Origin: an uncultured Deferribacteres bacterium
GTDB lineage: Bacteria > Zhuqueibacterota > Zhuqueibacteria > Zhuqueibacterales > Geothermadaptataceae
DNA: 17,671 nt
Reading direction: 5' to 3'
Assembly (NCBI GenBank): GCA_964014485.1
Contig: CAXHAT010000164.1
Span: 1 to 17,671, forward strand
The notes below the pieces were generated by a model that was given only the letters and a program-made list of their open reading frames with translations, was not told the DNA's origin and did not search any database. Below are positions 1-15,311 of the stretch, piece after piece (positions within the stretch are counted from its first letter, which is position 1; each line of letters begins with the position of its first letter). Made by a program: the position numbers and the translations under genes.

Positions 1-228
1 GAATTTGGTCTGTTTCGACAGATTTACAACATCTACAGGTTTCGATAAATACCTTTGCAATTTGCCGTAAAAGTCAAAAAAGGACTTTGGCGCGACTCCT
101 TTAACAGCCAAATCAATATCATTTGCCTTTTTCTCATCTTCAAGAGAAGAGCCAAAAAGATAAACTTCATTGACGTTAAATTTCTTTGCCAAATCAACAA
201 CGATTTTTTTGTCTTGTTCGCTAATCAT
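1..228 (-). CDS. Minimal nucleotidyltransferase (MNT/MntA-like antitoxin), 3' end truncated by the window edge
   Basis: Not in the ORF track. Manual translation from ATG at 228: MISEQDKKIVVDLAKKFNVNEVYLFGSSLEDEKKANDIDLAVKGVAPKSFFDFYGKLQRYLSKPVDVVNLSKQTKF..., open to base 1. It has the LFGS...DID and VDVV Pol-beta NTase motifs. Confidence 0.88.
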   Translation of the reverse strand, partial: MISEQDKKIVVDLAKKFNVNEVYLFGSSLEDEKKANDIDLAVKGVAPKSFFDFYGKLQRYLSKPVDVVNLSKQTKF

Positions 229-308: not shown

Positions 309-1091
309 TTACTCCTGCGCTTCCAGCTTCAAATCCTTGCGCAAAATGTTCCCAAACCGCGTTGCGCTGATTGGATGATCGGCCAACAGGCGACCGTTGT
401 AAACCAGATTAATCATGCCATAAGGCGAGAGCAAGGTCTCCCGCGCTTGCGCCGAGTCGTTCAGTTCATGCAGTTTCAATTCAATGCCATATTTCACCGC
501 AACCGGCGGCATTTCATCCACGGCTTTTCCGATGTAAGGGCATTGATCGGTGTAGATCAATTGCAAGCCTTGAAAACGATCCGATCGATCTTGCCAATTT
601 GTGGGGAACGCGGGCATGGGGGCTGGTTTCACGGACTTTTTCAACAATTGAAAGTGCGGTTCAGCCTCATCCACTTGCTCAAAACCGTGCTTGAGAAAAA
701 CATCCTTGCGCGCCATAAAACTGCCGTCGCTGGTGACGACCGCGACGCCTGATTGCCCGCTCGACGCGGCGTCATCCAGGCATTCTCGGAACAAAGCGGC
801 GGCCATGCCTTCATAGGGAAATTTTGCTGACGCAACCCAAATGCAGTGAATCACAAAATAGTTCGGCGCTTCGACCACCCGCCAAGTGAACTCTCCCGGA
901 ATGTATTCGAGAAAACCTGCTTGTTTGCCGTCATGCGTCAAAATCAGTTTGATGCGAAGTCCTTCTTCAAAGCGTTTGTGCAGCCAGGAACGCTTGGCGA
1001 TATACCCGGGATGCTTTTTGTTCTTCACGCAAAAAAAGCCGAATTCGTCGACGTTGTCGGAATTCACGGTGATAATTTTGTAATCAGCCAT
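309..1091 (-). CDS. GNAT-fold N-acetyltransferase with C-terminal YoaP domain
   Basis: GFLEYIPGE, IHCIWV, F-x-KHGF GNAT elements; C-terminal TDQCPY...SPYGMINLVYNGRLL matches YoaP-like proteins; GGAGG RBS upstream. Confidence 0.85.
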   Translation of the reverse strand: MADYKIITVNSDNVDEFGFFCVKNKKHPGYIAKRSWLHKRFEEGLRIKLILTHDGKQAGFLEYIPGEFTWRVVEAPNYFVIHCIWVASAKFPYEGMAAALFRECLDDAASSGQSGVAVVTSDGSFMARKDVFLKHGFEQVDEAEPHFQLLKKSVKPAPMPAFPTNWQDRSDRFQGLQLIYTDQCPYIGKAVDEMPPVAVKYGIELKLHELNDSAQARETLLSPYGMINLVYNGRLLADHPISATRFGNILRKDLKLEAQE

Positions 1092-1108: not shown

Positions 1109-2836
1109 TTAATTTTGCTCATTCGAAATGTCACTTTTATTTTGTGTCGGCTCGAATGGTAAAAAAACGTCAAATTGCGAGCCTTTGTCAAGCTCGCTTT
1201 GCACGGAAATATTGCCGCCGTGCGCTTCAACGATGAGCTTGACGTAACTCAAGCCCAAGCCGAAGCCCTTCACGTCGTGGATGTTTCCGGTTGAGACGCG
1301 AAAATACTTGTCGAAAACCTGCTTTTGATCTTCGGGGTGCAAGCCAATGCCGTTGTCTCGCACACGAATTTGTACGCCGTTTTCTGCGTTGGCAGTCGCG
1401 ATTTCGATGACGGGCGACCGTTTCGTGTATTTGCTGGCGTTATCGAGCAAATTGAAAATAATGCTTGCCAAATGCACTGCATCTGCTTTGATATGCGAAG
1501 ACGTCGCTTGCAGATTCTCGATAATTTTCCCGCCGCGCTTTTCAATTTGCAAAGTGATTTTTTGCACGGCGTTTTTCAAGAGAGCGTGAACATCGATTTG
1601 CGAGATTTTCAATTCGTACTCTTTGTTCTCGAGCACCGCCATTTGCAGGATTTTCTCGACCTGCTCGCGCATCCGCAGATTTTCATCGCGGACAATGCCG
1701 TTGTAACGCAAGACCTTCTCTTTGTTTTCGAGCGCCGCCGGATTTTCCAACGCCTCGGTCGCCAGTGAAATAGTCGAAATCGGCGTTTTGAATTCGTGCG
1801 TCATGTTGTTGACGAAGTCCATGACCGAAGTCGCGAAACGCTGCTGCCGGAAAATCGTGCGCACGGTGTAGACAAAGCTGAGAACAATAATCGAGACAAG
1901 TACGATGGTGGCAAAAAACAACGCGCCCATTTTTTGAAGCACGAACATGTTTTCATCGGGAAAATGGAGAGCAAGGTCGTGACGCGCGCCGAAGGGTTCA
2001 AAAGGAAAAAGGCGCTCCCGGAAGGGCGTGTCGCGCAGTTCCGGAATCATATCAGCGCGATTGGTCATTCGCAAAGAATCGTTTTTTTCTGAGAAAATGC
2101 CGAAAGCGTGAGGCAGAAAGATGTCATTTTCCGCCAATCTTGTTTGAATGAGCGAATCGAGCTGCACCTGGTTGATGCGTTCTTCAATCGGTTTTCGTTG
2201 CAGCGGATCCAGGTCGGCGAGAATTTTGGTGACCAGGCCGCGTTTCTCATCATCCGATGCGGGCTGGTGCTGCCAGAAGCCGCGCTGTTTGCTGGTGTAA
2301 TGGTAGGTCGAAAACGAGTTCTCGGTCGCCATGCGTATGAGCAGCGAACCGCGCTCCAATAAAGTTGAATCGATCTCTACTTCATATTTTCCGGCGGGAT
2401 GGTCGCCGTTGACCACGTCGGCGAGCTTTTCTCCGTCAATGCTCGTAATCTGGATTTTCACATGTTGCGAATCCGCCAGATCATAGAAAAGCTTTCCGTT
2501 ATCAACGGCAAAACTTGAATTTTCCGGCGTTTTTGTTGTGCGTAATTTCAAGCTGTCGGCAAAAACATAGCGCCTGCCGCTGCTTTTGGAAATGACGCCG
2601 ACGCTGTCATTTTCGGCGTGAAATTTAAAGGCGACGCCGATGGTGTGTTCGAGCGCTTCCAGCCGTTCTAATTCCTGAACAACGCCAACTAACGCGGCGT
2701 TGATGTTTTTTTCAAACGCTTGCCGTCGCAGCTTCCAGGCATTATTTAAAAGCACGATTTGCAAACCGGCCAATCCCGCGAGCGCCAACGTGATCACGCC
2801 CAGGATGATGCGAAGTTGTTTTTTTCGGTTTTTCAT
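1109..2836 (-). CDS. Membrane sensor histidine kinase (HisKA + HATPase_c), Bacteroidota RprX-like
   Basis: Two TM segments around a large periplasmic region; H-box DFVNNMTHEFKTP, N-box NLLDNASKY, G1 DNGIG, F-box FDKYFR, G2 GFGLGL. Confidence 0.95.
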   Translation of the reverse strand: MKNRKKQLRIILGVITLALAGLAGLQIVLLNNAWKLRRQAFEKNINAALVGVVQELERLEALEHTIGVAFKFHAENDSVGVISKSSGRRYVFADSLKLRTTKTPENSSFAVDNGKLFYDLADSQHVKIQITSIDGEKLADVVNGDHPAGKYEVEIDSTLLERGSLLIRMATENSFSTYHYTSKQRGFWQHQPASDDEKRGLVTKILADLDPLQRKPIEERINQVQLDSLIQTRLAENDIFLPHAFGIFSEKNDSLRMTNRADMIPELRDTPFRERLFPFEPFGARHDLALHFPDENMFVLQKMGALFFATIVLVSIIVLSFVYTVRTIFRQQRFATSVMDFVNNMTHEFKTPISTISLATEALENPAALENKEKVLRYNGIVRDENLRMREQVEKILQMAVLENKEYELKISQIDVHALLKNAVQKITLQIEKRGGKIIENLQATSSHIKADAVHLASIIFNLLDNASKYTKRSPVIEIATANAENGVQIRVRDNGIGLHPEDQKQVFDKYFRVSTGNIHDVKGFGLGLSYVKLIVEAHGGNISVQSELDKGSQFDVFLPFEPTQNKSDISNEQN

Positions 2837-3030: not shown

Positions 3031-3067
3031 TTTAACATTCATTAACACTTTCTAACACTCTTTAACT
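3031..3067. promoter_or_regulatory. Four direct repeats with 10-bp period, putative OmpR/PhoB-family regulator binding site
   Basis: TTTAACATTC ATTAACACTT TCTAACACTC TTTAACT in the divergent intergenic region between the kinase and the PDZ gene. Confidence 0.65.
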
Positions 3068-3140: not shown

Positions 3141-3944
3141 ATGAAAAAACTCGTTTTACTTTCCGCCGCACTTTTAATGATCGCTCCCGCCGCTTTTGGG
3201 CAAATGGTTTTTCGCACCCAGGGCGACGGCGAGTCGTTCATGATCCCGGAAGTCGGCGCTCTTTTACTAGACGAAGACGGCAAAGTCAACGTGCGTTTTG
3301 TTATGCCGGAGGCGCGTCGTGGAGAAAAGTACAAAAACGTCGATATTAAGCAAGACGATATTGTGCTTTATCTCAACGGCGTTCGCATCAAAAAAGTGGA
3401 AACGTTTAAGGCAAAGTACGATTCCCTGAAGTTCGGCGAGGAAGTGCAAATTGGCTTGCGTCGCGACAAAAACCGCTTCATCGCTTCTTTCATGAAAGCT
3501 GATCCCAAGGATTTACCGGAAACCGGAATGACGATGGTACGTCGCGGCGGGGCGGGAGAAGGCGAGACTTCGGGCGCTACGACGACCAGCGGCGGCGGCG
3601 AGCGCAGAATGACGATGCAGGGCAGTCCGCTTATGCAAGAAGCGGAAGCGATAAAGCCATTGGTCGAGCTTGCGCTGCTGATTGGCAAGATCGAAGACCA
3701 AGCCGTTGTAGTCGGCAAGCTGCCAATTCCCGGCGCTTTTGATAAAATGGAATTTGAAGAGGAAGACGTTTTGGCCTCCGTTAATGGCGACAAAGTGAAG
3801 TCATACGATCATTTTTTCGAACTTTGGGAAAAAATCAAACTTGGCGACGAGGTTACTCTGAAAGTGACGCGCGACAAGAAAGACGTCAGCGGGAAATTCG
3901 CCAAGCCGGCGCCGCCTGCTGGCATAAATATCAAGACTCGGTAG
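3141..3944 (+). CDS. Secreted tandem PDZ-domain protein
   Basis: ATG 3141 chosen: GGAG at 3129, signal peptide MKKLVLLSAALLMIAPAAFG. Two PDZ-like repeats (IKQDDIVLYLNGVRI...GEEVQIGLRRD; EEEDVLASVNGDKV...GDEVTLKVTRD). No protease domain recognised. Confidence 0.8.
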   Translation: MKKLVLLSAALLMIAPAAFGQMVFRTQGDGESFMIPEVGALLLDEDGKVNVRFVMPEARRGEKYKNVDIKQDDIVLYLNGVRIKKVETFKAKYDSLKFGEEVQIGLRRDKNRFIASFMKADPKDLPETGMTMVRRGGAGEGETSGATTTSGGGERRMTMQGSPLMQEAEAIKPLVELALLIGKIEDQAVVVGKLPIPGAFDKMEFEEEDVLASVNGDKVKSYDHFFELWEKIKLGDEVTLKVTRDKKDVSGKFAKPAPPAGINIKTR

Positions 3945-5858: not shown

Positions 5859-6935
5859 ATGTCCAAATTCCATAAGATTTCAGCACTGCTTTTTCTAACC
5901 CTTCCCATTTTGGCAACCGCACAACAAACCGAACTACCCTGGTTGAAAAACATCAATGCACAAGGCAAGCTCACGGAAATTGAGGCCATACGAGCGGATG
6001 CGAACGTCTCGGTTTCCGACGGAACGTCGTTCTCGACGATCAGCGTTTTTCATGACCGGCAGCGAGCCATTCATCGTCAAATCGACGAAGGGCGAACCAC
6101 GACGATGGGCGTTGAGGGGCGATACATGTGGATTTATGACGGCCAGACAGAAAAAGAAGCGCCGCCGTTCGTAGCAGATCTGGTTTTGGGCCATCAAATC
6201 CATGCGCTGGTTTTGTTTTTTGATCGCCTTTATTCTCCTCTTGATACGCCAAAAACGGCGCAATTTGCAGGCGAGGAGTGCGTTGCTCTTGCGAGCCAAA
6301 ATGATCCCTGGACTTTTTATTACGAACGGAATGGGCGACCTGTCGGGATGGAAATGAAGCGAGAAGGAGAACCGCCTGTCACTTTCAGATTCAGCGATTG
6401 GCGCACCATCGACGAGATGCTCTTGCCCTTTGCCGTGTTGATCGACGACGGCAGCAATCAATTTCAGTACAAGTACTCCGAAATTACCATCAATAAAGGC
6501 TCCATCTCTGAGTTCCGCGCGCCTGAAGCAGTTTTGACCGATGAGCAAAAATTATTGCGTCTGCACCGGATTTTTATGGACGGCCATTTGTTTGGCGAGG
6601 TCGCCGAAATGAGCGCGGCGCACGGAGATTCGGTCGTGATTGTCGGCAGAGGCGATGTTCACGAAATGCCGGGCGAGCAATCCGCCGCAACGCTGGGCGA
6701 TATCCTCGCACGCAGCAATTATTCGGTCTACGACGACATGATTCGCCCGAAAGTCGAGATTTCCGAAGACGGCAGCCTGGGCTGGGTTATCGCGCAGGTT
6801 TTGGGCAAAGGCGTGGATAATAACTCCGGCAATTCTTTTGAGTTCGTCTGCGCCTGGATTGAGCTTTACAAAAAAACAGACGGCAAATGGCGATTCACTG
6901 GCAACGTCTCCAATTTTCGACCTGAAAAACGTTAA
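5859..6935 (+). CDS. Secreted protein: LolA-like beta-sheet N-domain + C-terminal NTF2/SnoaL-like (DUF4440-type) domain
   Basis: Signal peptide ending ATA; FSDWRTIDEMLLPF motif; C-terminal VEISEDGSLGWV...WIELYKKTDGKWRFTGNVS is typical of NTF2-like folds. Confidence 0.65.
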   Translation: MSKFHKISALLFLTLPILATAQQTELPWLKNINAQGKLTEIEAIRADANVSVSDGTSFSTISVFHDRQRAIHRQIDEGRTTTMGVEGRYMWIYDGQTEKEAPPFVADLVLGHQIHALVLFFDRLYSPLDTPKTAQFAGEECVALASQNDPWTFYYERNGRPVGMEMKREGEPPVTFRFSDWRTIDEMLLPFAVLIDDGSNQFQYKYSEITINKGSISEFRAPEAVLTDEQKLLRLHRIFMDGHLFGEVAEMSAAHGDSVVIVGRGDVHEMPGEQSAATLGDILARSNYSVYDDMIRPKVEISEDGSLGWVIAQVLGKGVDNNSGNSFEFVCAWIELYKKTDGKWRFTGNVSNFRPEKR

Positions 6936-6941
6936 ACGCAT

Positions 6942-8471
6942 ATGACCAAGCTTGCATATTTTACAGTTTTCCTACTTGCACTCGCCGCATGCGAGAACCG
7001 CGAAAGACCCGAAGCATTCTTGAAAAATGTAGCTGAAAAGATGGGTTCGCTTCAAAATCTAACGAAAGCAGGTTCGATTTCGATTTATGCGTCTGGAACG
7101 ATGAACAAGACCGCTGAAGGCCAGGGATTGTCGCCGAACAGCCTGTCCAACGGCCCGTACTCCGAAGTTCTAGCAGTCGATCTTGAGAGCGGCGCGGTTT
7201 TCCGCGACTACAAAGAATCCCGATTCGATGGTACGCTCGAACGTTTCGGCGAATTATTTTCGTCCGACACCCTGCGTCAACTTCTCATTCGTGACTACGG
7301 CATCGTCATTCCGTTTCGGGCCCTAAGCTTTGCTGAAGAGCGGGCGCAACTGAGACGCAGAATTCCTCACTTTCTAGTCAACGAACTCCTTGAAAAACCG
7401 GGTGGATTGAAGTATGGAGAATCAGAAAATGGTTTCGCCAGCGTCGAGGGCGGCCTTGCGAGCGGGCAGGCTGTGACGCTCGATGTGGATCCATCGTCTC
7501 AATTCGTCCGCAAAGTCTCATTTGACTGGTTGATTCCCGGACGAGGAAGGGGCGAGATCGATTGGTCGTATGACGACTACAGGCAGGTCGCCGATGGCGT
7601 GCATGTGCCATTTGCGTACAGCTCGCGGGTCGGGAAGATCGATTATATCACCATGACCGTCGACAGCGTCCTGTTGGACAGGTCGGAGAATTTCCAACCG
7701 CCGAGCGATCTGTCGGTTTTGCCCGTTCGTGATCAGCAACCGGATAGAGACCGCACCCCATTGGAATTTCGAGAACTGGCTAAAGGGGTTTTCATCGTGC
7801 CTGAAGTTCGAAGCGGATTTGCTCCGCTCGTCGCCGAATTTGACGAGTTTCTGGTCGTCGTTGACGCACCGGCGAGTTTCCCGCTGCTTGGTCAAATCCC
7901 GCCGAGTGAGACTGATCCAGGGGCTTCGATGAGTTGGCCTTGTTTGGAATTTGTCTCGGCGTTGGAAAGAAAGTGGCCAAATAAGCGCGTCGCCTACGTC
8001 GTGCTCACGCATCATCATGAAGATCACATTGGCGGGATTCGCGCCTTTGTTGCTTCTGGCGCAACCGTCTTGGGCGGTAAGCACGCGGTCGCGGCGGCGC
8101 AAGCCCTCGCCAATTTGTCGTCGCCTTTGATTGATGATCAATTGGGAGACTTGAGAGCGTCTTTTCAGGCGGAAACTGTGGATGAAACTCGCAGAATCAG
8201 TGACGGCCAACAGGTGCTGGACATCATTCCAATGGGCGAGAATCCCCACGCTGAAGGTATGTTGGTCATCTCCTTGCCCAATTTGAAAATGCTCTACGTG
8301 AGCGATTTTGTTACGCCCGGCCCTGTTGACGGTTATCCCGAGCCTAATCATGCCGCGCTTGACCGTTTTTTTGCAAGATGGGTTGATGAAACCGGCTTGG
8401 CTGCTGACTCGGTGTGGTCGATGCATGGTCGTATGCCGTTGACCAAAGCGCATTTTGAGCGCTTGAAATGA
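6942..8471 (+). CDS. Lipoprotein with C-terminal MBL-fold metallo-hydrolase domain
   Basis: Lipobox LAAC; THHHEDHIGG (HxHxDH); downstream NPHAEG, VSDF and SMHG candidate metal ligands. Confidence 0.85.
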   Translation: MTKLAYFTVFLLALAACENRERPEAFLKNVAEKMGSLQNLTKAGSISIYASGTMNKTAEGQGLSPNSLSNGPYSEVLAVDLESGAVFRDYKESRFDGTLERFGELFSSDTLRQLLIRDYGIVIPFRALSFAEERAQLRRRIPHFLVNELLEKPGGLKYGESENGFASVEGGLASGQAVTLDVDPSSQFVRKVSFDWLIPGRGRGEIDWSYDDYRQVADGVHVPFAYSSRVGKIDYITMTVDSVLLDRSENFQPPSDLSVLPVRDQQPDRDRTPLEFRELAKGVFIVPEVRSGFAPLVAEFDEFLVVVDAPASFPLLGQIPPSETDPGASMSWPCLEFVSALERKWPNKRVAYVVLTHHHEDHIGGIRAFVASGATVLGGKHAVAAAQALANLSSPLIDDQLGDLRASFQAETVDETRRISDGQQVLDIIPMGENPHAEGMLVISLPNLKMLYVSDFVTPGPVDGYPEPNHAALDRFFARWVDETGLAADSVWSMHGRMPLTKAHFERLK

Positions 8472-8515
8472 CAAGGCTTAACCGCGGACGCCCTGAACTT
8501 TGGAAAAGTAAATTC

Positions 8516-9685
8516 ATGAATAACACGCAAACGTTCATCACCTTCTTGCTCATTATTTTATCAACGTCTTGTATGGCGCAGGATGACGTTTTGATAAAAA
8601 CTTACGGGGGCAACGGCTCTGATCGAGGCATTCATATTATTCAGGCTTCGGACAGCAATTTTGTTGTTGTCGGCAACACGACGGTAGAAGGGAAAAATTT
8701 GGACGTTTACCTTTTAAAATGCAACAGTTCCGGCGATACATTGTGGACGCGAAAATTTGGCGGGCCGGAAGATGACAATGGCTGGAGTATAAAAGAAACT
8801 TCAGACAGGGGCTACATTATTACTGGATTCACCGAAAGTTACGGCGCCGGCAAAAACGATGTCTTGCTCATGAAAACAGACGTGAATGGCGTCGAGCAAT
8901 GGAGCAAAACTTTCGGCGGTTCAGGTGATGACATTGGCTGGTCAATAGCAATAAATGATGATGGCGGGTTCACGATTGCAGCGCAAACCGACGGTTACGG
9001 CAACGGAGAACTGGACGCCTACTTGATCAGAGCGGACGCGAATGGCGACACGTTGTGGACCAGGACTTTTGGAGGCCCGAAAACGGATCGTGTTTTTTCC
9101 GTCGCTTTAGCCGATGACGGAAGCGCCCTATTGGCTGGAATTACCTATTCTTACGGCGCTGGTGATAGAGATGCCTGGCTGCTTAAAACTGGCAGCAGCG
9201 GAGATTTGCTTTGGCAAAAAACTTATGGCGGCCCCGGCTACGATAACGCCCATGGGGTGATTGTGAATAGCGAAAATGAAATCATTTTGACCGGCTACGG
9301 CGATTATTGGGGAAATGAAGAAAAACGGAATATTTTCCTGAAAAAAATCACGATGGATGGGGAAGACGTGTGGACTCAAAAGTACGGCGGGCCGGAGAAT
9401 GATCGTGCCATGACGGTTTTTCAAACCCAAGACAACGGGTATGTTATGACTGGCTTCACCCAAAGTTTTGGCCAGGGCGCCTGGGATGCTTACGTCTTAA
9501 GAACTGATGCAGCGGGAGATACTTTGTGGACCAGCACTTATGGTGCAACGGCTCCTGATTTCGGCTATGACGTCATTCAAAGCGTTCAAGGCGACTATTT
9601 TGTGACGGGGTGGAGTCACAGTTTTGGACAGCCGGAAGGAGGCTTGCTTTTGATTAAGATAATTGATGTTACGCGTCAGTTCTAA
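8516..9685 (+). CDS. Secreted beta-propeller repeat protein
   Basis: ATG 8516 gives signal peptide MNNTQTFITFLLIILSTSCMAQ (ORF-track start 8468 is an alternative). About 7 repeats of W-x-KT(F/Y)GG..D.G..I....DGGY...G.T.S.G.G..D..L.K.D..G. Confidence 0.8.
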   Translation: MNNTQTFITFLLIILSTSCMAQDDVLIKTYGGNGSDRGIHIIQASDSNFVVVGNTTVEGKNLDVYLLKCNSSGDTLWTRKFGGPEDDNGWSIKETSDRGYIITGFTESYGAGKNDVLLMKTDVNGVEQWSKTFGGSGDDIGWSIAINDDGGFTIAAQTDGYGNGELDAYLIRADANGDTLWTRTFGGPKTDRVFSVALADDGSALLAGITYSYGAGDRDAWLLKTGSSGDLLWQKTYGGPGYDNAHGVIVNSENEIILTGYGDYWGNEEKRNIFLKKITMDGEDVWTQKYGGPENDRAMTVFQTQDNGYVMTGFTQSFGQGAWDAYVLRTDAAGDTLWTSTYGATAPDFGYDVIQSVQGDYFVTGWSHSFGQPEGGLLLIKIIDVTRQF

Positions 9686-9878: not shown

Positions 9879-10667
9879 ATGGAAACGGAAACCACGACAC
9901 AAACAAACGGCTCGACGAACGGCGCGGAAGTTTTGCTGCAAGCCGTCGATTTGAGCAAGCGTTATGAAGACGGCGTTTTGGCGCTGGATCGCGTGAATTT
10001 TAATGTTAAAAAAGGCGAAGTTTTCGCCATGCTTGGCGGCAACGGCGCAGGGAAAACGACCACGATCAACATCTTCCTGAATTTCATCGAACCGACCGAT
10101 GGCGAGGCGCGCGTGCGAAACGTCGCGACGCACAAGGAGCCTTTGCAAGCCAAGCAAAATTTGGCGTTTGTTTCGGAAAACGTCATGCTCTATCCGAATT
10201 TCACCGCCCTGCAAAACCTCGATTTTTTTGCCCGGCTGGGAGGCAAGACTGAATATTCCAGAGATGATTATCGCAAAGTCCTGCTCCGGGTTGGATTACA
10301 GGAAGAAGCGCACGGCAAGCGTTTGAAAGGCTTTTCGAAAGGCATGCGGCAAAAATGTGGCATCGCCATCGCGATTTTGAAAGACGCACCCGCGATTTTG
10401 CTCGACGAACCGACTTCCGGCCTCGATCCCAAAGCCGGATTTGAATTTATCCGATTGCTGGAAGAATTGCGTGACGAAGGCAAGGCCATCCTTATGTCCA
10501 CCCATGATATTTTCCGCGCCAAAGAGGTCGCCGACACGATTGGCATTATGAACCAGGGACAACTCGTCATGAACGCCCCGCGCAACGAACTCGGCGGCGA
10601 GGATTTGGAGAAATTGTACATGCAGTACATGGCCGGGTATATGGATGAAGCGGCTGTTGTTCAGTAA
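9879..10667 (+). CDS. ABC transporter ATP-binding protein (ABC-2 exporter type)
   Basis: Walker A GGNGAGKTT, signature FSKGM, Walker B ILLDEP, H-loop STHD. Confidence 0.96.
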   Translation: METETTTQTNGSTNGAEVLLQAVDLSKRYEDGVLALDRVNFNVKKGEVFAMLGGNGAGKTTTINIFLNFIEPTDGEARVRNVATHKEPLQAKQNLAFVSENVMLYPNFTALQNLDFFARLGGKTEYSRDDYRKVLLRVGLQEEAHGKRLKGFSKGMRQKCGIAIAILKDAPAILLDEPTSGLDPKAGFEFIRLLEELRDEGKAILMSTHDIFRAKEVADTIGIMNQGQLVMNAPRNELGGEDLEKLYMQYMAGYMDEAAVVQ

Positions 10668-10735: not shown

Positions 10736-12160
10736 ATGCTGGGTTTATTGATACAAAAAGAACTGAAAGAAGTCATCGGCTCGACGAAATTCGCGGTGAC
10801 GTTCGCCGTGTGCTCGGTTTTGATTTTGTTGGCGTTTTATACCGGCGCGCAAAATTACGAAGTCAGCCGCCAGCAGTATGAAGCGTCGAAGACGGAAAAT
10901 CTGCGCCAGATGGAAGGTCTGACTGATTGGATGATGCTGCGAAACCACCGTATCTTTCGTTCGCCGGAGCCGTTGGCCGCGCTAGTGACCGGCGTTTCGA
11001 ATGATGTTGGCCGCTCAATTACAGTCCGTGGGCAGGGTTCGCTCGCGGCGGAAGATTCGCGCTTTAATGACGAACCGATTTTCGCGGTATTTCGTTTTCT
11101 CGACCTTGATTTTATCTTTCAAATCGTGCTCTCTCTGTTCGCCATTTTGTTCGCCTACGACGCGATCAACGGCGAAAAAGAGCGCGGTACGCTGCGACTG
11201 GTTTTCGCCAACGCCATTCCGCGCGCGAAATTCATTCTTGGCAAAATCATCGGCTCTTTTACGGCGCTGGCCGTGCCGCTGCTGATTCCCATACTTCTCG
11301 GCTGTCTGCTGCTACCGATTTTGGGCGTGCATTTGAACACGGACGAATGGCTGCGCCTCGGCATGGTCATTCTTGCGGGGATGCTCTATTTCGGCGTGTT
11401 TTTGATGCTTTCGGTTTTCATTTCCTCCATCACTCGCCGTTCATCAAGCTCATTTTTGCTTTTGCTTGTTGTCTGGATTTTTTCCGTGCTCATCATCCCG
11501 CGCTCCGCCGTGTTGATGGCGGGACGCGCCGTTGACGTGCCTTCGGTTGATGAAATTGCTTCTCAAAAAAGTCGCCTGAGCCGTCAGTTATGGACGGAAG
11601 ATCGCGAAAAAATGTCTTCGTTCAAGCCAACGGACAGCTCCGATCCACAGAAGATGATGGAAGAGTTTCAAAAGATGATGCAGGATAACGCCGACGAGCG
11701 CGAGAAGCGGATGAGCGACCTTGACGCCAAATTATCGGAAGAGCGCAACAATCGTTTGCGGACGCAGGAAAGTGCGGCTTTCTCTTTTGCCCGAATCTCC
11801 CCGACGGCGGCGTTCTCGTTGGCCGTGACCAATTTGACGGGCAGTTCGACTGATTTAAAACAGCATTTTCTTAATGAAGCGGCGGCTTATCAGCAGTCTT
11901 ACGCTGAATTCATGAAGGAAAAAACCGGGATGAACATCGGCGGCGGCGGGTTTGTATTTCGGATGCGGCATTCGGGGGACGGAGAAGAAGAGGAAGAAAA
12001 ACCCATTGATCCGCGTGAACTGCCGGAATTCAAGTACAGCGGCATTCCAATGGACAAAGTGGTAACTGCCGCCCTGCCGGAAATGGGCATCCTGGCGGTG
12101 TTTAACCTGCTGTTTTTTGCCGGCGCATTTGCGATGTTTATGCGATTTGATTTGAGATAA
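10736..12160 (+). CDS. ABC-2 family permease with large extracytoplasmic loops (DUF3526-like), subunit 1
   Basis: IQKELK N-terminus, YDAINGEKERGTLRL motif, about 6 TM helices, large helical loop, RFDLR C-terminus; GGAG RBS. Confidence 0.9.
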   Translation: MLGLLIQKELKEVIGSTKFAVTFAVCSVLILLAFYTGAQNYEVSRQQYEASKTENLRQMEGLTDWMMLRNHRIFRSPEPLAALVTGVSNDVGRSITVRGQGSLAAEDSRFNDEPIFAVFRFLDLDFIFQIVLSLFAILFAYDAINGEKERGTLRLVFANAIPRAKFILGKIIGSFTALAVPLLIPILLGCLLLPILGVHLNTDEWLRLGMVILAGMLYFGVFLMLSVFISSITRRSSSSFLLLLVVWIFSVLIIPRSAVLMAGRAVDVPSVDEIASQKSRLSRQLWTEDREKMSSFKPTDSSDPQKMMEEFQKMMQDNADEREKRMSDLDAKLSEERNNRLRTQESAAFSFARISPTAAFSLAVTNLTGSSTDLKQHFLNEAAAYQQSYAEFMKEKTGMNIGGGGFVFRMRHSGDGEEEEEKPIDPRELPEFKYSGIPMDKVVTAALPEMGILAVFNLLFFAGAFAMFMRFDLR

Positions 12161-12250: not shown

Positions 12251-13522
12251 ATGTGGACAAACGCACAAAATTCGACAATCGGTCAGATTGCCTTTTTTGC
12301 GGTGATCTTTGCCGTTAATACCTCGCAGGCGCTCGCCCAAGACTGGACGCAATGGCTCGGCCCGAACCGCGACGGACGAATTCCCGCCCAGAGCGTGCCT
12401 GGGACGCTTTCTGAAAAACCCGATTTAATTTGGGAGACGACGGTTGGAGGCGGTTATTCTTCGCCTTTGATTTTTGATGATCAGGTTTTTGTTCACACTC
12501 GAATCGATGAACAAGAAGTTGTCGCCTGTCTGGATTTGAAGACCGGTAAACAAATTTGGCGAAAAACGAACGCCGCGCCAATGCAGCGCAATCAATACGC
12601 CGTCAAGCACGGCAAAGGCCCTTTCGCGACCCCGGCGATCCATTCCGGCAAACTTTTCACCGTCGGCGTAACCGGCGTTTTGACTTGTTTTGACATCAAA
12701 AACGGAAATGTGCTCTGGCGAAAAGTCTACAAGGAATCCGGTTTAAATACAGAGAAATTCTTTTGCGGCAACACTGTCTCGCCGCTGATCTACAAAAATA
12801 TGTGCATCACTTTCATCGGCGATGACGACGCCGGGGCACTAACGGCGTATGACGTCGAGACCGGCGAGGAAGTCTGGAGTTGGAAGGAAGACAACCCCGG
12901 CTACGCTTCGCCAATTCTGGTCACATCAGGCGGCGTCGCACAAATTGTCACGCTGTCACAAAACGGCGTCATCGGCGTTTCCGCGGAAAATGGCAAGCTG
13001 TTATGGCAAATTCCTTTTGTCTCTGAATGGAAAGAAAATATTCCATCGCCGGTCTTTTTCGATGATATGATCATCTATTCTGGCGTCGGGCGAGGAACAA
13101 TGAGCGTGAAGCTTGAAAAAAGCAACGGCGGGTGGAAGACGACGGAATTGTGGCAGAACAAAGAAATTTCAATGTATATGAATTCGCCTGTATTGCACGA
13201 AGCGAAGCTCTTCGGCCTCTCGCAGAAACGGCGCGGTCAATTCTTTAGTTTGGACGCCAAAACCGGAAAAACGTTTTGGACCAACGAGGGCCGAGAAGGG
13301 GCGAACGCCTCCTTGTTTTTGGGCGGTGACTCGTTCTATTCGTTGACGACGGAAGGCGTACTGAAAATATTTGAAGCGACTTCGGAAGCATTTCGGCTTC
13401 GAGGTGAACTTAGTCTCGCGGAAACATCGACCTGGGCGACCCCGGCGTTCGTTGAGAATCATATTTTGATCAAAGCCGGAGAGAATCTCAGGCTGTTTGC
13501 CGCTCCGAGAAAAACGCAATAG
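12251..13522 (+). CDS. Secreted PQQ-binding-like beta-propeller protein
   Basis: Signal peptide ending ALA-Q; DWTQWLGPNRDG; repeated YSSP/ATP...LD.KTGK..W blades. Confidence 0.88.
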   Translation: MWTNAQNSTIGQIAFFAVIFAVNTSQALAQDWTQWLGPNRDGRIPAQSVPGTLSEKPDLIWETTVGGGYSSPLIFDDQVFVHTRIDEQEVVACLDLKTGKQIWRKTNAAPMQRNQYAVKHGKGPFATPAIHSGKLFTVGVTGVLTCFDIKNGNVLWRKVYKESGLNTEKFFCGNTVSPLIYKNMCITFIGDDDAGALTAYDVETGEEVWSWKEDNPGYASPILVTSGGVAQIVTLSQNGVIGVSAENGKLLWQIPFVSEWKENIPSPVFFDDMIIYSGVGRGTMSVKLEKSNGGWKTTELWQNKEISMYMNSPVLHEAKLFGLSQKRRGQFFSLDAKTGKTFWTNEGREGANASLFLGGDSFYSLTTEGVLKIFEATSEAFRLRGELSLAETSTWATPAFVENHILIKAGENLRLFAAPRKTQ

Positions 13523-13835: not shown

Positions 13836-15311
13836 ATGTTAAAAACACTCATCGAAAAAGAACTCAAAGCCATCATTCTCAGCCCGAAATTCGCGGCGAC
13901 GTTTGCGGTGTGCGCACTGCTCATCGTCCTGAGCGTATTTGTTGGAATCAAGGAATATAACAACGCCGTTGCGCAGTACGAAACCGTCACCAGCCTAGCG
14001 GAGCAGGAGCTGCGTGAACAGAATTCCTGGAGTTCGCTTGGAACGCGTATTTCGCGAGAACCGGAGCCAATGCAAATTTTTTCTTCCGGCGTACATAATG
14101 ACGTCGGGCGTTTGACGGCGATTTCTTCATGGCAGGAAATCAAACTGCGGAACAGCAATTATTCGGACGATCCGATTTTCGCCGTTTTCCGGTTTGTCGA
14201 TGTGGCGTTTATCGTGCAAATCGTTCTGTCGCTGTTCGCGATTTTGTTTACTTACGACGCAATCAACGGCGAACGCGAGGGAGGAACGCTGCAATTGACT
14301 TTTTCCAACGCCGTGCCGCGCGTGCAGTACATCGTTTCCAAATTTATCGGCTCATGGCTTGGTCTGGTTCTGCCGCTGCTCGTACCTATTCTGCTCGGAC
14401 TGCTCCTGCTCTTGCTTTTCAATGTGCCTTTGACCGGCGATGATTGGGGGAAAATGACGGCCATGATGGGGGCGTCTCTGCTGTATTTTACATTTTTCAT
14501 CGCTTTGGGCATTCTTGTTTCCGCGCTGACAAAACAATCCGCGACCTCGTTTCTGTTCTTGCTTGTCACTTGGGTAACGCTCGTTTTGATCATCCCGCGC
14601 GTGGGCGTAATGGCCGCCGGGCATTTGTACGAAGTGCCGACCGTGGCCGAAGTTGAGGCCAAACGCGACGGTTTTGCCAAAGACAAATGGGAAGAGCATT
14701 TCCAGGGCATGGAAGATCGCTGGAGCGCCCGCAACGTTGAAATGCAAGGCATGGACGAATCTGAGCGCGAAGAATATCGTGACGACAATGAATGGGGGTG
14801 GATGCAGGAAGACGCTGAAGAGCGCAAAAAAGTCACAGCGGAAATTAGCGACTACGGCAGAAAGCTGACCGAAGACCTGCGCAATCGCAAGGCGGAACAG
14901 GAAAAGTTCGGGTTCACAATTTCACGCTTTTCCCCCGCTTCCGCGTTTCAGTTGGCGGTAATGAATCTCGCTGGAACCAACATCGATTTGAAAACGCGCA
15001 ACGAAGACGCGATGGACGATTATCGTACTGCATTCAAAGATTATCGTGATAAGAAACAAAAAGAAAACGGCGGCGGCGGGGGCATCCGAATTTCGATGAG
15101 TTCCGGCGAAAGCGGAGGCGCGTTCAAAATCTCCGGCGACCGCGATCAAGGCACGCTCGACTTGACCGACATGCCAAAATTCGTCGCGCCACAGCACACA
15201 TTCTCAGCGGGCTTTTCCCCGGCGATGACGGATATTGGCCTGCTGAGTCTGTTCACGATCATCGCATTCGCCGCCGCATTCGTTGCGTTTTTGAAGTACG
15301 ACGTTCGCTAA
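13836..15311 (+). CDS. ABC-2 family permease with large extracytoplasmic loops (DUF3526-like), subunit 2
   Basis: Paralogue of 10736-12160: IEKELK, PIFAVFRF, YDAINGEREGGTL, RFSP, KYDVR. Confidence 0.9.
   Translation: MLKTLIEKELKAIILSPKFAATFAVCALLIVLSVFVGIKEYNNAVAQYETVTSLAEQELREQNSWSSLGTRISREPEPMQIFSSGVHNDVGRLTAISSWQEIKLRNSNYSDDPIFAVFRFVDVAFIVQIVLSLFAILFTYDAINGEREGGTLQLTFSNAVPRVQYIVSKFIGSWLGLVLPLLVPILLGLLLLLLFNVPLTGDDWGKMTAMMGASLLYFTFFIALGILVSALTKQSATSFLFLLVTWVTLVLIIPRVGVMAAGHLYEVPTVAEVEAKRDGFAKDKWEEHFQGMEDRWSARNVEMQGMDESEREEYRDDNEWGWMQEDAEERKKVTAEISDYGRKLTEDLRNRKAEQEKFGFTISRFSPASAFQLAVMNLAGTNIDLKTRNEDAMDDYRTAFKDYRDKKQKENGGGGGIRISMSSGESGGAFKISGDRDQGTLDLTDMPKFVAPQHTFSAGFSPAMTDIGLLSLFTIIAFAAAFVAFLKYDVR

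Follow-up and report, generated by a model that had tools for sequence, protein, structure and literature searches.

The immunoglobulin (Ig)-like domain of FlgD is internal, not terminal, and Ig-like Y_Y_Y domains occur in hybrid kinases of Bacteroides. The type-A C-terminal domain (CTD) of type IX secretion systems (T9SS) has been described as a C-terminal stretch of 70–100 residues in cargo exported by Sec, folded as a 4+3 seven-stranded sandwich and carrying the surface motifs L-beta3-beta4 and C-t (PMC11285876). In Porphyromonas gingivalis, PorA's CTD is reported to bind PorY and to activate the PorXY-SigP cascade, also with PorA retained at the inner membrane (PMC12152298), and CTD motif D is reported to be needed for PorM binding (bioRxiv 10.1101/483123). 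A review of kinase sensing names PDC, double PDC, all-alpha and other folds, and its main text uses neither the word 'beta-sandwich' nor the word 'immunoglobulin' (PMC8534201); a search of open-access papers found no CTD-like or FlgD-like domain in the sensor of a histidine kinase. Here, we describe a sandwich of this kind inside the sensor of a histidine kinase (P0001) encoded by an uncultured Deferribacteres bacterium, within positions 1–17,671 of contig CAXHAT010000164.1 (assembly GCA_964014485.1); this whole stretch of 17,671 nucleotides is referred to as the window.

A preliminary description made from the sequence alone had placed a T9SS-CTD/FlgD-like Ig domain at 2297–2491, in the periplasmic sensor region of the kinase. 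The location was confirmed, with the gene on the minus strand: the 65 residues matched kinase residues 116–180 letter for letter, in the largest open reading frame (ORF) of the window around them, and the plus-strand frame of the same bases was interrupted by stops and gave no open reading. Transmembrane (TM) helices at residues ~10–30 and 303–325 flank the segment and are followed by HisKA (residues 340–403, E 1.5e-10) and HATPase_c (452–562, E 2.9e-25), so that the segment lies in an extracytoplasmic loop of a membrane-bound HisKA-class sensor kinase, with two TM helices around the loop and the catalytic domains after it. Residues 31–302 probably face the periplasm, because a K/R-rich N-terminus precedes helix 1 (positive-inside rule). 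In a fold search of the PDB, the kinase core resembled HK853, WalK and similar kinases (E 1e-20 to 1e-12). A Pfam scan of the kinase detected no HAMP domain, and TM2 ran straight into the DHp helix. According to the structural model and the Pfam assignments, the slot of the Ig-like domain is between the helix that continues TM1 and an alpha/beta module that feeds TM2 (Table 1).

The fold of the segment was examined in an AlphaFold2 model of the full-length kinase built with a family alignment of 62 sequences (mean predicted local distance difference test score, pLDDT, 85.6). Eight strands were predicted, at residues 109–112, 115–120, 124–132, 137–146, 149–154, 164–170, 175–181 and 184–190, with block-mean pLDDT values of 79–93 over residues 111–180 and of ~62 at 181–190. 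Por_Secre_tail clusters constituted nine of the ten listed structural neighbours of residues 100–190 in the ESM Atlas (TM-score by query 0.74–0.82), and 58–100% of the members of these nine clusters bore Por_Secre_tail; one row was a 99-residue cluster consisting of a CTD only, with TM-scores of 0.80 (query) and 0.74 (target). The Atlas search used the Atlas's own model of the kinase, both sides being predictions, and a TM-score above 0.5 says little for short stretches. With eight modelled strands in 82 residues and these Atlas neighbours, the segment agrees with the compact, Ig-like, seven-stranded sandwich of 70–100 residues that characterises CTDs. The Ig-like character proposed in the preliminary description was supported by both the AlphaFold2 model and the Atlas search. 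Searches starting from other material were uninformative: the sensor region folded poorly from its single sequence (pLDDT 37.4), a PDB fold search with the full-length model returned kinase cores only, and one with this low-confidence sensor model yielded no match at E ≤ 0.001. The RgpB CTD (rank 32) and a T9SS translocon chain (rank 43) in the latter search were not significant and were not used. Taken as a model, the segment is a confidently predicted beta-sandwich of seven to eight strands of the CTD/FlgD-Ig kind. After it, helices 195–236 and a small sheet at 244–291 lead into TM2 in the AlphaFold2 model, and the order of these secondary-structure elements suggests a PDC/PAS-like module of the type known from other kinase sensors, whereas the review cited above does not list a CTD-like sandwich placed before such a module (PMC8534201).

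Profile comparison pointed in the same direction as the predicted structures. A reference set of CTDs was assembled from the C-terminal ends of ORFs in the retrieved loci: 45 candidates matched a PNP-type regular expression, and six of these, which by eye did not resemble CTDs, were dropped; 38 of the 39 left matched Por_Secre_tail at E ≤ 0.01, and the one that failed, from locus L045, was also dropped. The 38 sequences stand for PNP-bearing Bacteroidota CTDs only. When the kinase-domain profile of 62 sequences was compared with this set using hhalign, kinase residues 114–177 were aligned to CTD columns 36–94 of 106, with a probability of 66% (P 5.6e-5, score 24.4, 59 columns). Scores in the controls were 8.1 for reversed CTDs, 7.4 on average for 60 column shuffles (sd 1.55, maximum 11.4), 7.2–13.9 for four other regions of the kinase, and 9.8–16.5, over at most 33 columns, for four beta-rich segments of the neighbouring 499-residue protein. 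An independent alignment of six kinase domains matched the CTDs in the same register (78.4%, E 1.7e-5, 60 columns), and a model built from the 38 CTDs gave weak in-register matches at ~113–180, of 13.8 bits or less, in about a dozen family members. Like the type-A CTD (PF18962/TIGR04183), the kinase domain has about 80 residues in an Ig-like sandwich of seven to eight strands, its nearest predicted-structure neighbours are CTD clusters, and the remote, in-register profile match extends across the beta3-beta4 hairpin with its D-x-x-G motif and a G-x-aromatic strand. Remote homology to the type-A CTD/FlgD-Ig group is probable but not proven, and the kinase domain and the CTDs would then share a common ancestor.

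The distribution of the domain among related kinases was patchy. An exhaustive search with residues 30–300 yielded 226 proteins at E ≤ 1e-3, and the following counts are from the best 150 of these 226; a word-indexed homologue search with the same residues had found only the query itself among 2,166 candidates. The whole sensor region was matched by 70 of the 150 listed relatives, and many relatives matched only the membrane-proximal module, at query positions ~165–271, which is common to a wider kinase family without the Ig domain. A profile of the Ig segment (E ≤ 0.01) detected the domain in 83 of the 150 (59 members of the training set and 24 outside it) and not in 67, with a median start at position 109 in the relatives. 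A FastTree phylogeny of the kinase core (the final 262 residues) was calculated for 117 full-length proteins, of which 64 have the domain and 53 lack it. On this tree, the presence and absence of the domain required 19 changes, compared with a mean of 38.7 after shuffling, and at least seven of these were forced by well-supported branches; the tree was quick and unrooted, and gains are indistinguishable from losses on it. A genome scan identified 80 loci, the closest of which were in a metagenome-assembled genome (MAG) labelled 'bacterium', two Zixibacteria MAGs, an Ignavibacteria MAG, and one MAG each labelled Chlorobiaceae and Bacteroidetes, and the remaining ones were in Bacteroidota. Among these 80 loci, the Ig profile matched only the kinases of the window and of the orthologous loci L001, L003, L004, L005 and L006, but not that of L002, an orthologue in the same synteny. 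Because of this patchy presence among relatives and the repeated gain or loss on the tree, the Ig-like domain is regarded as a conserved but dispensable accessory module.

The genomic surroundings of the kinase were conserved across the orthologous loci. The divergent operon upstream of the kinase was kept in the window and in L001, L002, L004, L005 and L006, and L003 was cut by the contig end. Homologues of its PDZ gene adjoined the kinase in L001, L004, L005 and L006 and were absent in L002. The exported 499-residue NEW3 protein had orthologues of 54–63% identity in L001, L002, L004, L005 and L006, and the ATPase of the ATP-binding cassette (ABC) transporter was 71–74% identical in five loci. 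Orthologues of the first ABC-2 permease were 48–64% identical in five loci and those of the second 48–58% identical in L002, L004, L005 and L006; the single permease ORF of L001 was the only match of the second permease there (39%) and also the best match of the first. An OmpR-type regulator (Response_reg + Trans_reg_C, 230–233 residues) directly followed the kinase in all five loci with downstream sequence (L002–L006). The pattern of GTTAA repeats in the divergent intergenic region was present upstream of the kinase gene both in the window and at six of six orthologous loci (L001 9866–9900, L002 9922–9956, L003 31–65, L004 9900–9934, L005 9898–9932 and L006 9927–9961), with 21 invariant columns across the seven. 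These repeats are probably a binding site of the OmpR-type regulator, a putative operator best read as serving autoregulation, and control of the ABC operon by the same regulator is suggested by the shared divergent region. A scan of this intergenic region for a sigma-70 promoter and a terminator found nothing. L002, the sole synteny orthologue without the Ig domain, was also without the PDZ gene; with n = 1, this co-occurrence is only a lead.

The best explanation of these results, to which we assign a probability of roughly 0.55, is that in this lineage a CTD/FlgD-Ig-type sandwich acts as an accessory to a periplasmic sensor tied to the PDZ/NEW3/ABC-2 locus. The alpha/beta module would be the core transducer, wired directly to TM2 and, without HAMP, to the DHp helix. 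The Ig-like domain might offer a surface for a periplasmic partner, either protein or glycan, or set the geometry of the sensor; in either case it would modulate, and not itself generate, the signal relayed by the alpha/beta module to the kinase. In the divergent promoter region, the OmpR-type regulator would bind the four GTTAA repeats, and it would control the kinase operon itself and probably also the PDZ/NEW3/ABC-2 operon. The data show the fold, its remote likeness to CTDs, the topology, the conservation in a subfamily, the recurrent presence and absence, the synteny and the operator, whereas we infer the binding of a partner, the extent of the regulon and an ancestry shared with CTDs.

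Several observations weigh against this explanation. First, every sequence match to the CTD and FlgD models was under its curated cut-off, and the kinase-domain profile, in turn, found no genuine CTD among 2,481 ORFs. Second, at several of the best-kept positions of the Ig domain (D172 in 56 of the 62 members, G149 in 53, S173 in 47, V126 and D143 in 43 each and D132 in 40), the copy in the window departs from the consensus, with S132, N143, E172 and N173 in place of D, D, D and S. Third, the window has no regulator gene next to the kinase. Finally, the same operator was present at L020 (5132–5166) and L025 (3323–3357), upstream of kinases lacking both the Ig domain and a nearby ABC operon; it may therefore mark autoregulation only, and the link of the kinase to the ABC operon may then rest on synteny alone. 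The Ig copy of the window may be drifting, which would fit its missing adjacent regulator. The window copy also has S for P at position 123, and its off-consensus sites (123, 132, 143, 172 and 173) fall within 2318–2470 on the minus strand. In the place of the regulator, 17 bases past the kinase stop, a protein of 260 residues without a Pfam or NCBIfam match is encoded at 309–1091 (minus strand). The kinase of the window keeps its operator despite having no adjacent regulator.

The sandwich could instead be a passive spacer or a decaying insert in a slot that tolerates almost anything, setting height or bulk and perhaps bearing glycans but having no specific ligand. This is unlikely, albeit consistent with several features of the family. 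Among the 62 members, the Ig domain was the least conserved folded part, with a mean pairwise identity of 18% (kinase core 50%, alpha/beta module 32%, helix 30%); at least seven gains or losses were forced on the tree; and S/T/D-rich segments took its place in many relatives. However, the domain was clearly better conserved than the linker (9%), and surface-type positions, namely G149, D172, S173, D143 and V126, were kept across phyla at the frequencies given above. The S/T/D-rich segments are of similar length, look low in complexity, contain D-S-hydrophobic triplets and were seen in P0049, P0045, P0118, P0051 and P0099 and in the kinases of L002, L020 and L025. P0049, with such a segment and no Ig domain, is the closest kinase-core relative of the window protein (63% core identity).

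The glycan-bearing version of the spacer explanation can be examined through D-[ST]-[AILVMT], reported as an O-glycosylation motif of Bacteroidota (PMC12871550). Across the 62 kinases, this motif was enriched 4.9-fold in the periplasmic part (329 occurrences against 67.8 expected), which speaks for such a role, and was depleted in the cytoplasmic part (20 against 39.2 expected). Conserved sites were at 227 (56 of 62), 253 (50 of 62) and 172 (33 of 62), and the kinase in the window has five sites (residues 77, 94, 156, 227 and 253), all within residues 31–300 (1937–2746, minus strand) and none in the cytoplasmic part. In contrast, the other exported proteins of the window showed no enrichment (8 observed, 7.4 expected). 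Glycosylation is therefore doubtful, and the motifs may have a structural role instead of marking glycan sites. The reading of the conserved T-D-S as an O-glycosylation site was weakened by the same lack of enrichment elsewhere and by the window copy, which reads E-N-S.

Convergence is quite unlikely, on the view that the segment is a generic Ig-like sandwich without common ancestry with CTD or FlgD-Ig, its alternating-strand pattern being shared with them and explaining the weak matches. The single-sequence results are in keeping with this view. FlgD_ig was the best Pfam match (E 0.041; 0.072 for the 90-residue segment 101–190), placing kinase residues 121–158 on profile positions 20–57 of 79, at 14.3 bits against a cut-off of 27. 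Por_Secre_tail (PF18962) reached E 0.14 and 13 bits, also against 27, and NCBIfam, including TIGR04183, gave no match to the copy in the window at E ≤ 10. Each of the two Pfam models matched only two of 62 family members at E ≤ 1 (best E for Por_Secre_tail 0.0053), and among six isolated segments PF18962 matched two, TIGR04183 one (E 0.0057) and FlgD_ig one. Sequence searches of the PDB gave 0 matches with the single sequence and chance matches only, at E ≥ 0.8, with the six-sequence profile, and the hhalign probabilities (66–78%) and the failure of the family profile to find a real CTD could be cited in the same sense. On the other hand, FlgD_ig and Por_Secre_tail were the only models among 24,736 in Pfam to appear for residues 101–190 at E ≤ 10, beta-rich control domains scored far lower, the register was identical in every comparison, and the structural neighbours were specifically CTD clusters rather than general Ig folds. 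The resemblance to the FlgD domain (PF13860), which is likewise internal and Ig-like and provided the best single-sequence Pfam match, is limited by the low bit score, the two of 62 members matched and the lack of a flagellar context.

The preliminary description also suggested that the segment could be a decoy through which the kinase senses secretion load or CTD-binding factors, a proposal that no result supported. The likeness to CTDs stands on the sandwich, the Atlas neighbours and the hhalign comparison, but membership of the sorting domains does not hold. Identity as a T9SS sorting signal was rejected, as the domain is internal and below cut-offs, its match stops short of the PNP strand, and a free C-terminal motif is lacking. 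The domain ends at residue 190 of 575, with the alpha/beta module, TM2 and the kinase core still to come, and cannot serve as an export tag because it is held between two membrane anchors without a free C-terminus. In the 38 reference CTDs, the N and P of the PNP strand were invariant and the preceding P occurred in at least 90%, whereas the alignments of the kinase-domain profile began past this strand and ended short of the last CTD positions. The kinase domain carries family-specific P-Q-H and T-D-S motifs that set it apart from CTDs. P-Q-H had been considered as a counterpart of the CTD P-N-P and was dropped, since the profile alignments put it in a different strand.

A functional link to the T9SS without a sorting role is a separate matter and, in our judgement, very unlikely. 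The CTD-like domain would engage CTD-binding parts of the secretion machinery or, in cis, a CTD-binding site on its own sensor module, and kinase activity would change with machine load or with CTD cargo accumulating in the periplasm. The CTD-type fold and the remote profile match are compatible with this. The aligned part spans the beta3-beta4 hairpin and the G-x-aromatic strand, corresponding to CTD motifs B and D. The D-x-x-G of the hairpin aligns with motif L-beta3-beta4, or B, with D132 in 40 and G135 in 28 of the 62 members, and reads S-I-D-G in the window copy. Moreover, all relatives were from the Fibrobacteres-Chlorobi-Bacteroidetes (FCB) group, in which the T9SS is reported to occur (PMC11285876), and tethering to the inner membrane has been reported not to prevent the PorA CTD from binding and activating PorY (PMC12152298). 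By analogy, a CTD-type domain and the periplasmic region of a kinase would act together at the inner membrane in both systems, but in P. gingivalis a separate secreted protein bears the CTD and T9SS genes are the output, whereas here the domain is within the kinase, the regulator at orthologous loci is OmpR-type, and the neighbours are ABC-2 and PDZ genes. Further points against the link are that no T9SS component or Por_Secre_tail protein was found in the 17.7-kb window or among the scanned ORFs of L001–L006 (15 + 45 ORFs, also scanned with the 38-CTD model), that the match stops short of the PNP strand and a free C-terminal motif is impossible, that PorA is reported to have depended on an intact final strand and on six or more basic residues (PMC12152298), and that the domain has been repeatedly gained or lost, the same-synteny orthologue L002 being without it. 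The missing T9SS linkage at the kinase loci proves little in itself, because the locus tags of porY and porX in P. gingivalis are far apart (PGN_2001 and PGN_1019; PMC12152298). Sensing by a decoy thus received no support from the gene content of the loci or from the distribution of the domain, which is absent in 67 of the 150 listed relatives, and retains low odds on account of the reported PorA-CTD/PorY precedent (PMC12152298). A still more specific version is highly improbable, namely that the built-in CTD acts as a PorA-like pseudo-ligand in cis on a CTD-binding surface of the alpha/beta module or of a partner such as the PDZ protein, that unexported cargo competes for this surface, and that the kinase reports T9SS stress and switches on an envelope clean-up by the PDZ/ABC-2 genes; if true, it would represent a fused, hard-wired PorA-PorY circuit across several FCB phyla. 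Two proteins of the Zixibacteria locus L005 (3–3692 and 14602–17994) are a Peptidase_C25 (gingipain-family) protein ending in Dockerin_1 and a 1,131-residue protein ending in Golvesin_C. Neither bears a type-A CTD, which raises the question of the export tags used in this lineage.

Table 1. Features of the sensor kinase and of the adjoining divergent operon, with positions in the window
Feature	Position	Strand	Basis
Sensor histidine kinase gene (P0001), 575 residues	1109..2836	-	ORF list and translation; HisKA + HATPase_c
Kinase core: HisKA 1628–1819, HATPase_c 1151–1483	1151..1819	-	Pfam; PDB fold search
TM helix 2, residues ~303–325	1862..1930	-	Hydropathy scan; model helix 295–364
Membrane-proximal alpha/beta sensor module (predicted), residues 195–291	1964..2254	-	Helices 195–236, strands 244–291, pLDDT >90
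CTD/FlgD-Ig-like beta-sandwich (predicted), residues 109–190	2267..2512	-	Core 2297–2491; AlphaFold2, Atlas neighbours, hhalign, sub-threshold Pfam
Disordered, weakly conserved linker, residues 78–105	2522..2605	-	pLDDT <50; mean pairwise identity 9%
Long periplasmic helix continuing TM1, residues 31–76	2609..2746	-	AlphaFold2, pLDDT mostly >90; family identity 30%
TM helix 1, residues ~10–30	2747..2809	-	Hydropathy scan; within continuous model helix 2–76
Four direct GTTAA repeats, 10-bp period, divergent intergenic region	3032..3066	-	One match in window, 0/200 shuffles
Secreted PDZ-domain protein, first gene of divergent operon	3141..3944	+	PDZ_2 E 6.4e-15; signal-peptide-like N-terminus
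Exported NEW3/Ig-like protein, 499 residues, C-terminal membrane helix	4216..5715	+	NPCBM_assoc E 4.5e-14; hydrophobic 6–24, 468–486
ABC transporter ATPase	9879..10667	+	ABC_tran E 1.1e-26; DrrA/GldA-like, below cut-offs
ABC-2 permease (ABC2_membrane_2 + DUF3526)	10736..12160	+	Pfam
Second ABC-2 permease (ABC2_membrane_2 + DUF3526)	13836..15311	+	Pfam

The arrangement of the locus recalls the Bce-like modules, described as sensing complexes of kinase and transporter in which BceS-type kinases are without an extracytoplasmic domain (PMC8534201). In both cases, a kinase-regulator pair is conserved beside an ABC transporter operon. The likeness is one of synteny, and the present kinase differs in having an extracytoplasmic part of 270 residues and in being accompanied by an ABC-2 transporter with DUF3526 and by PDZ and NEW3 accessory proteins; a search of open-access papers found none pairing DUF3526 with ABC. 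The operon in the window contained additional genes. Between the NEW3 and ATPase genes (5859–9685), an exported protein of 358 residues without assigned function, a metallo-beta-lactamase-fold protein of 509 residues and an SBBP/beta-propeller protein of 405 residues were encoded, and a PQQ_2 (BamB-like) beta-propeller was encoded between the permeases (12251–13522). The inserts in L001 were different, namely an alkaline phosphatase and a protein of the serine beta-lactamase family. At the edge of the window, a partial ORF of 76 residues (1–228, minus strand) resembled an MntA-family adenylyltransferase antitoxin of a type VII toxin-antitoxin system (E 6.9e-9, below cut-off).

Overall, a CTD-type sandwich has been redeployed within a sensor kinase that is part of an uncharacterised two-component/ABC-2 module of the FCB group. 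This compact module, comprising the kinase, an OmpR-type regulator, the GTTAA operator and the PDZ/NEW3/ABC-2 operon, occurs in Zixibacteria-, Ignavibacteria- and Bacteroidota-like genomes, and the uncharacterised sensor architecture itself is found in at least 83 sequence clusters. For annotation, weak Por_Secre_tail or FlgD_ig matches within membrane proteins should not be taken as secretion signals. The type-A CTD is usually taken as a terminal export tag, and a CTD-like domain placed internally, within a sensor of the inner membrane, shows that this fold has gained a further use. A CTD was first shown to be the ligand of a kinase in 2025, and a kinase family with a built-in CTD-like domain is a natural place to ask about contacts between CTDs and sensors. 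It raises the question of whether CTD sensing extends beyond P. gingivalis.

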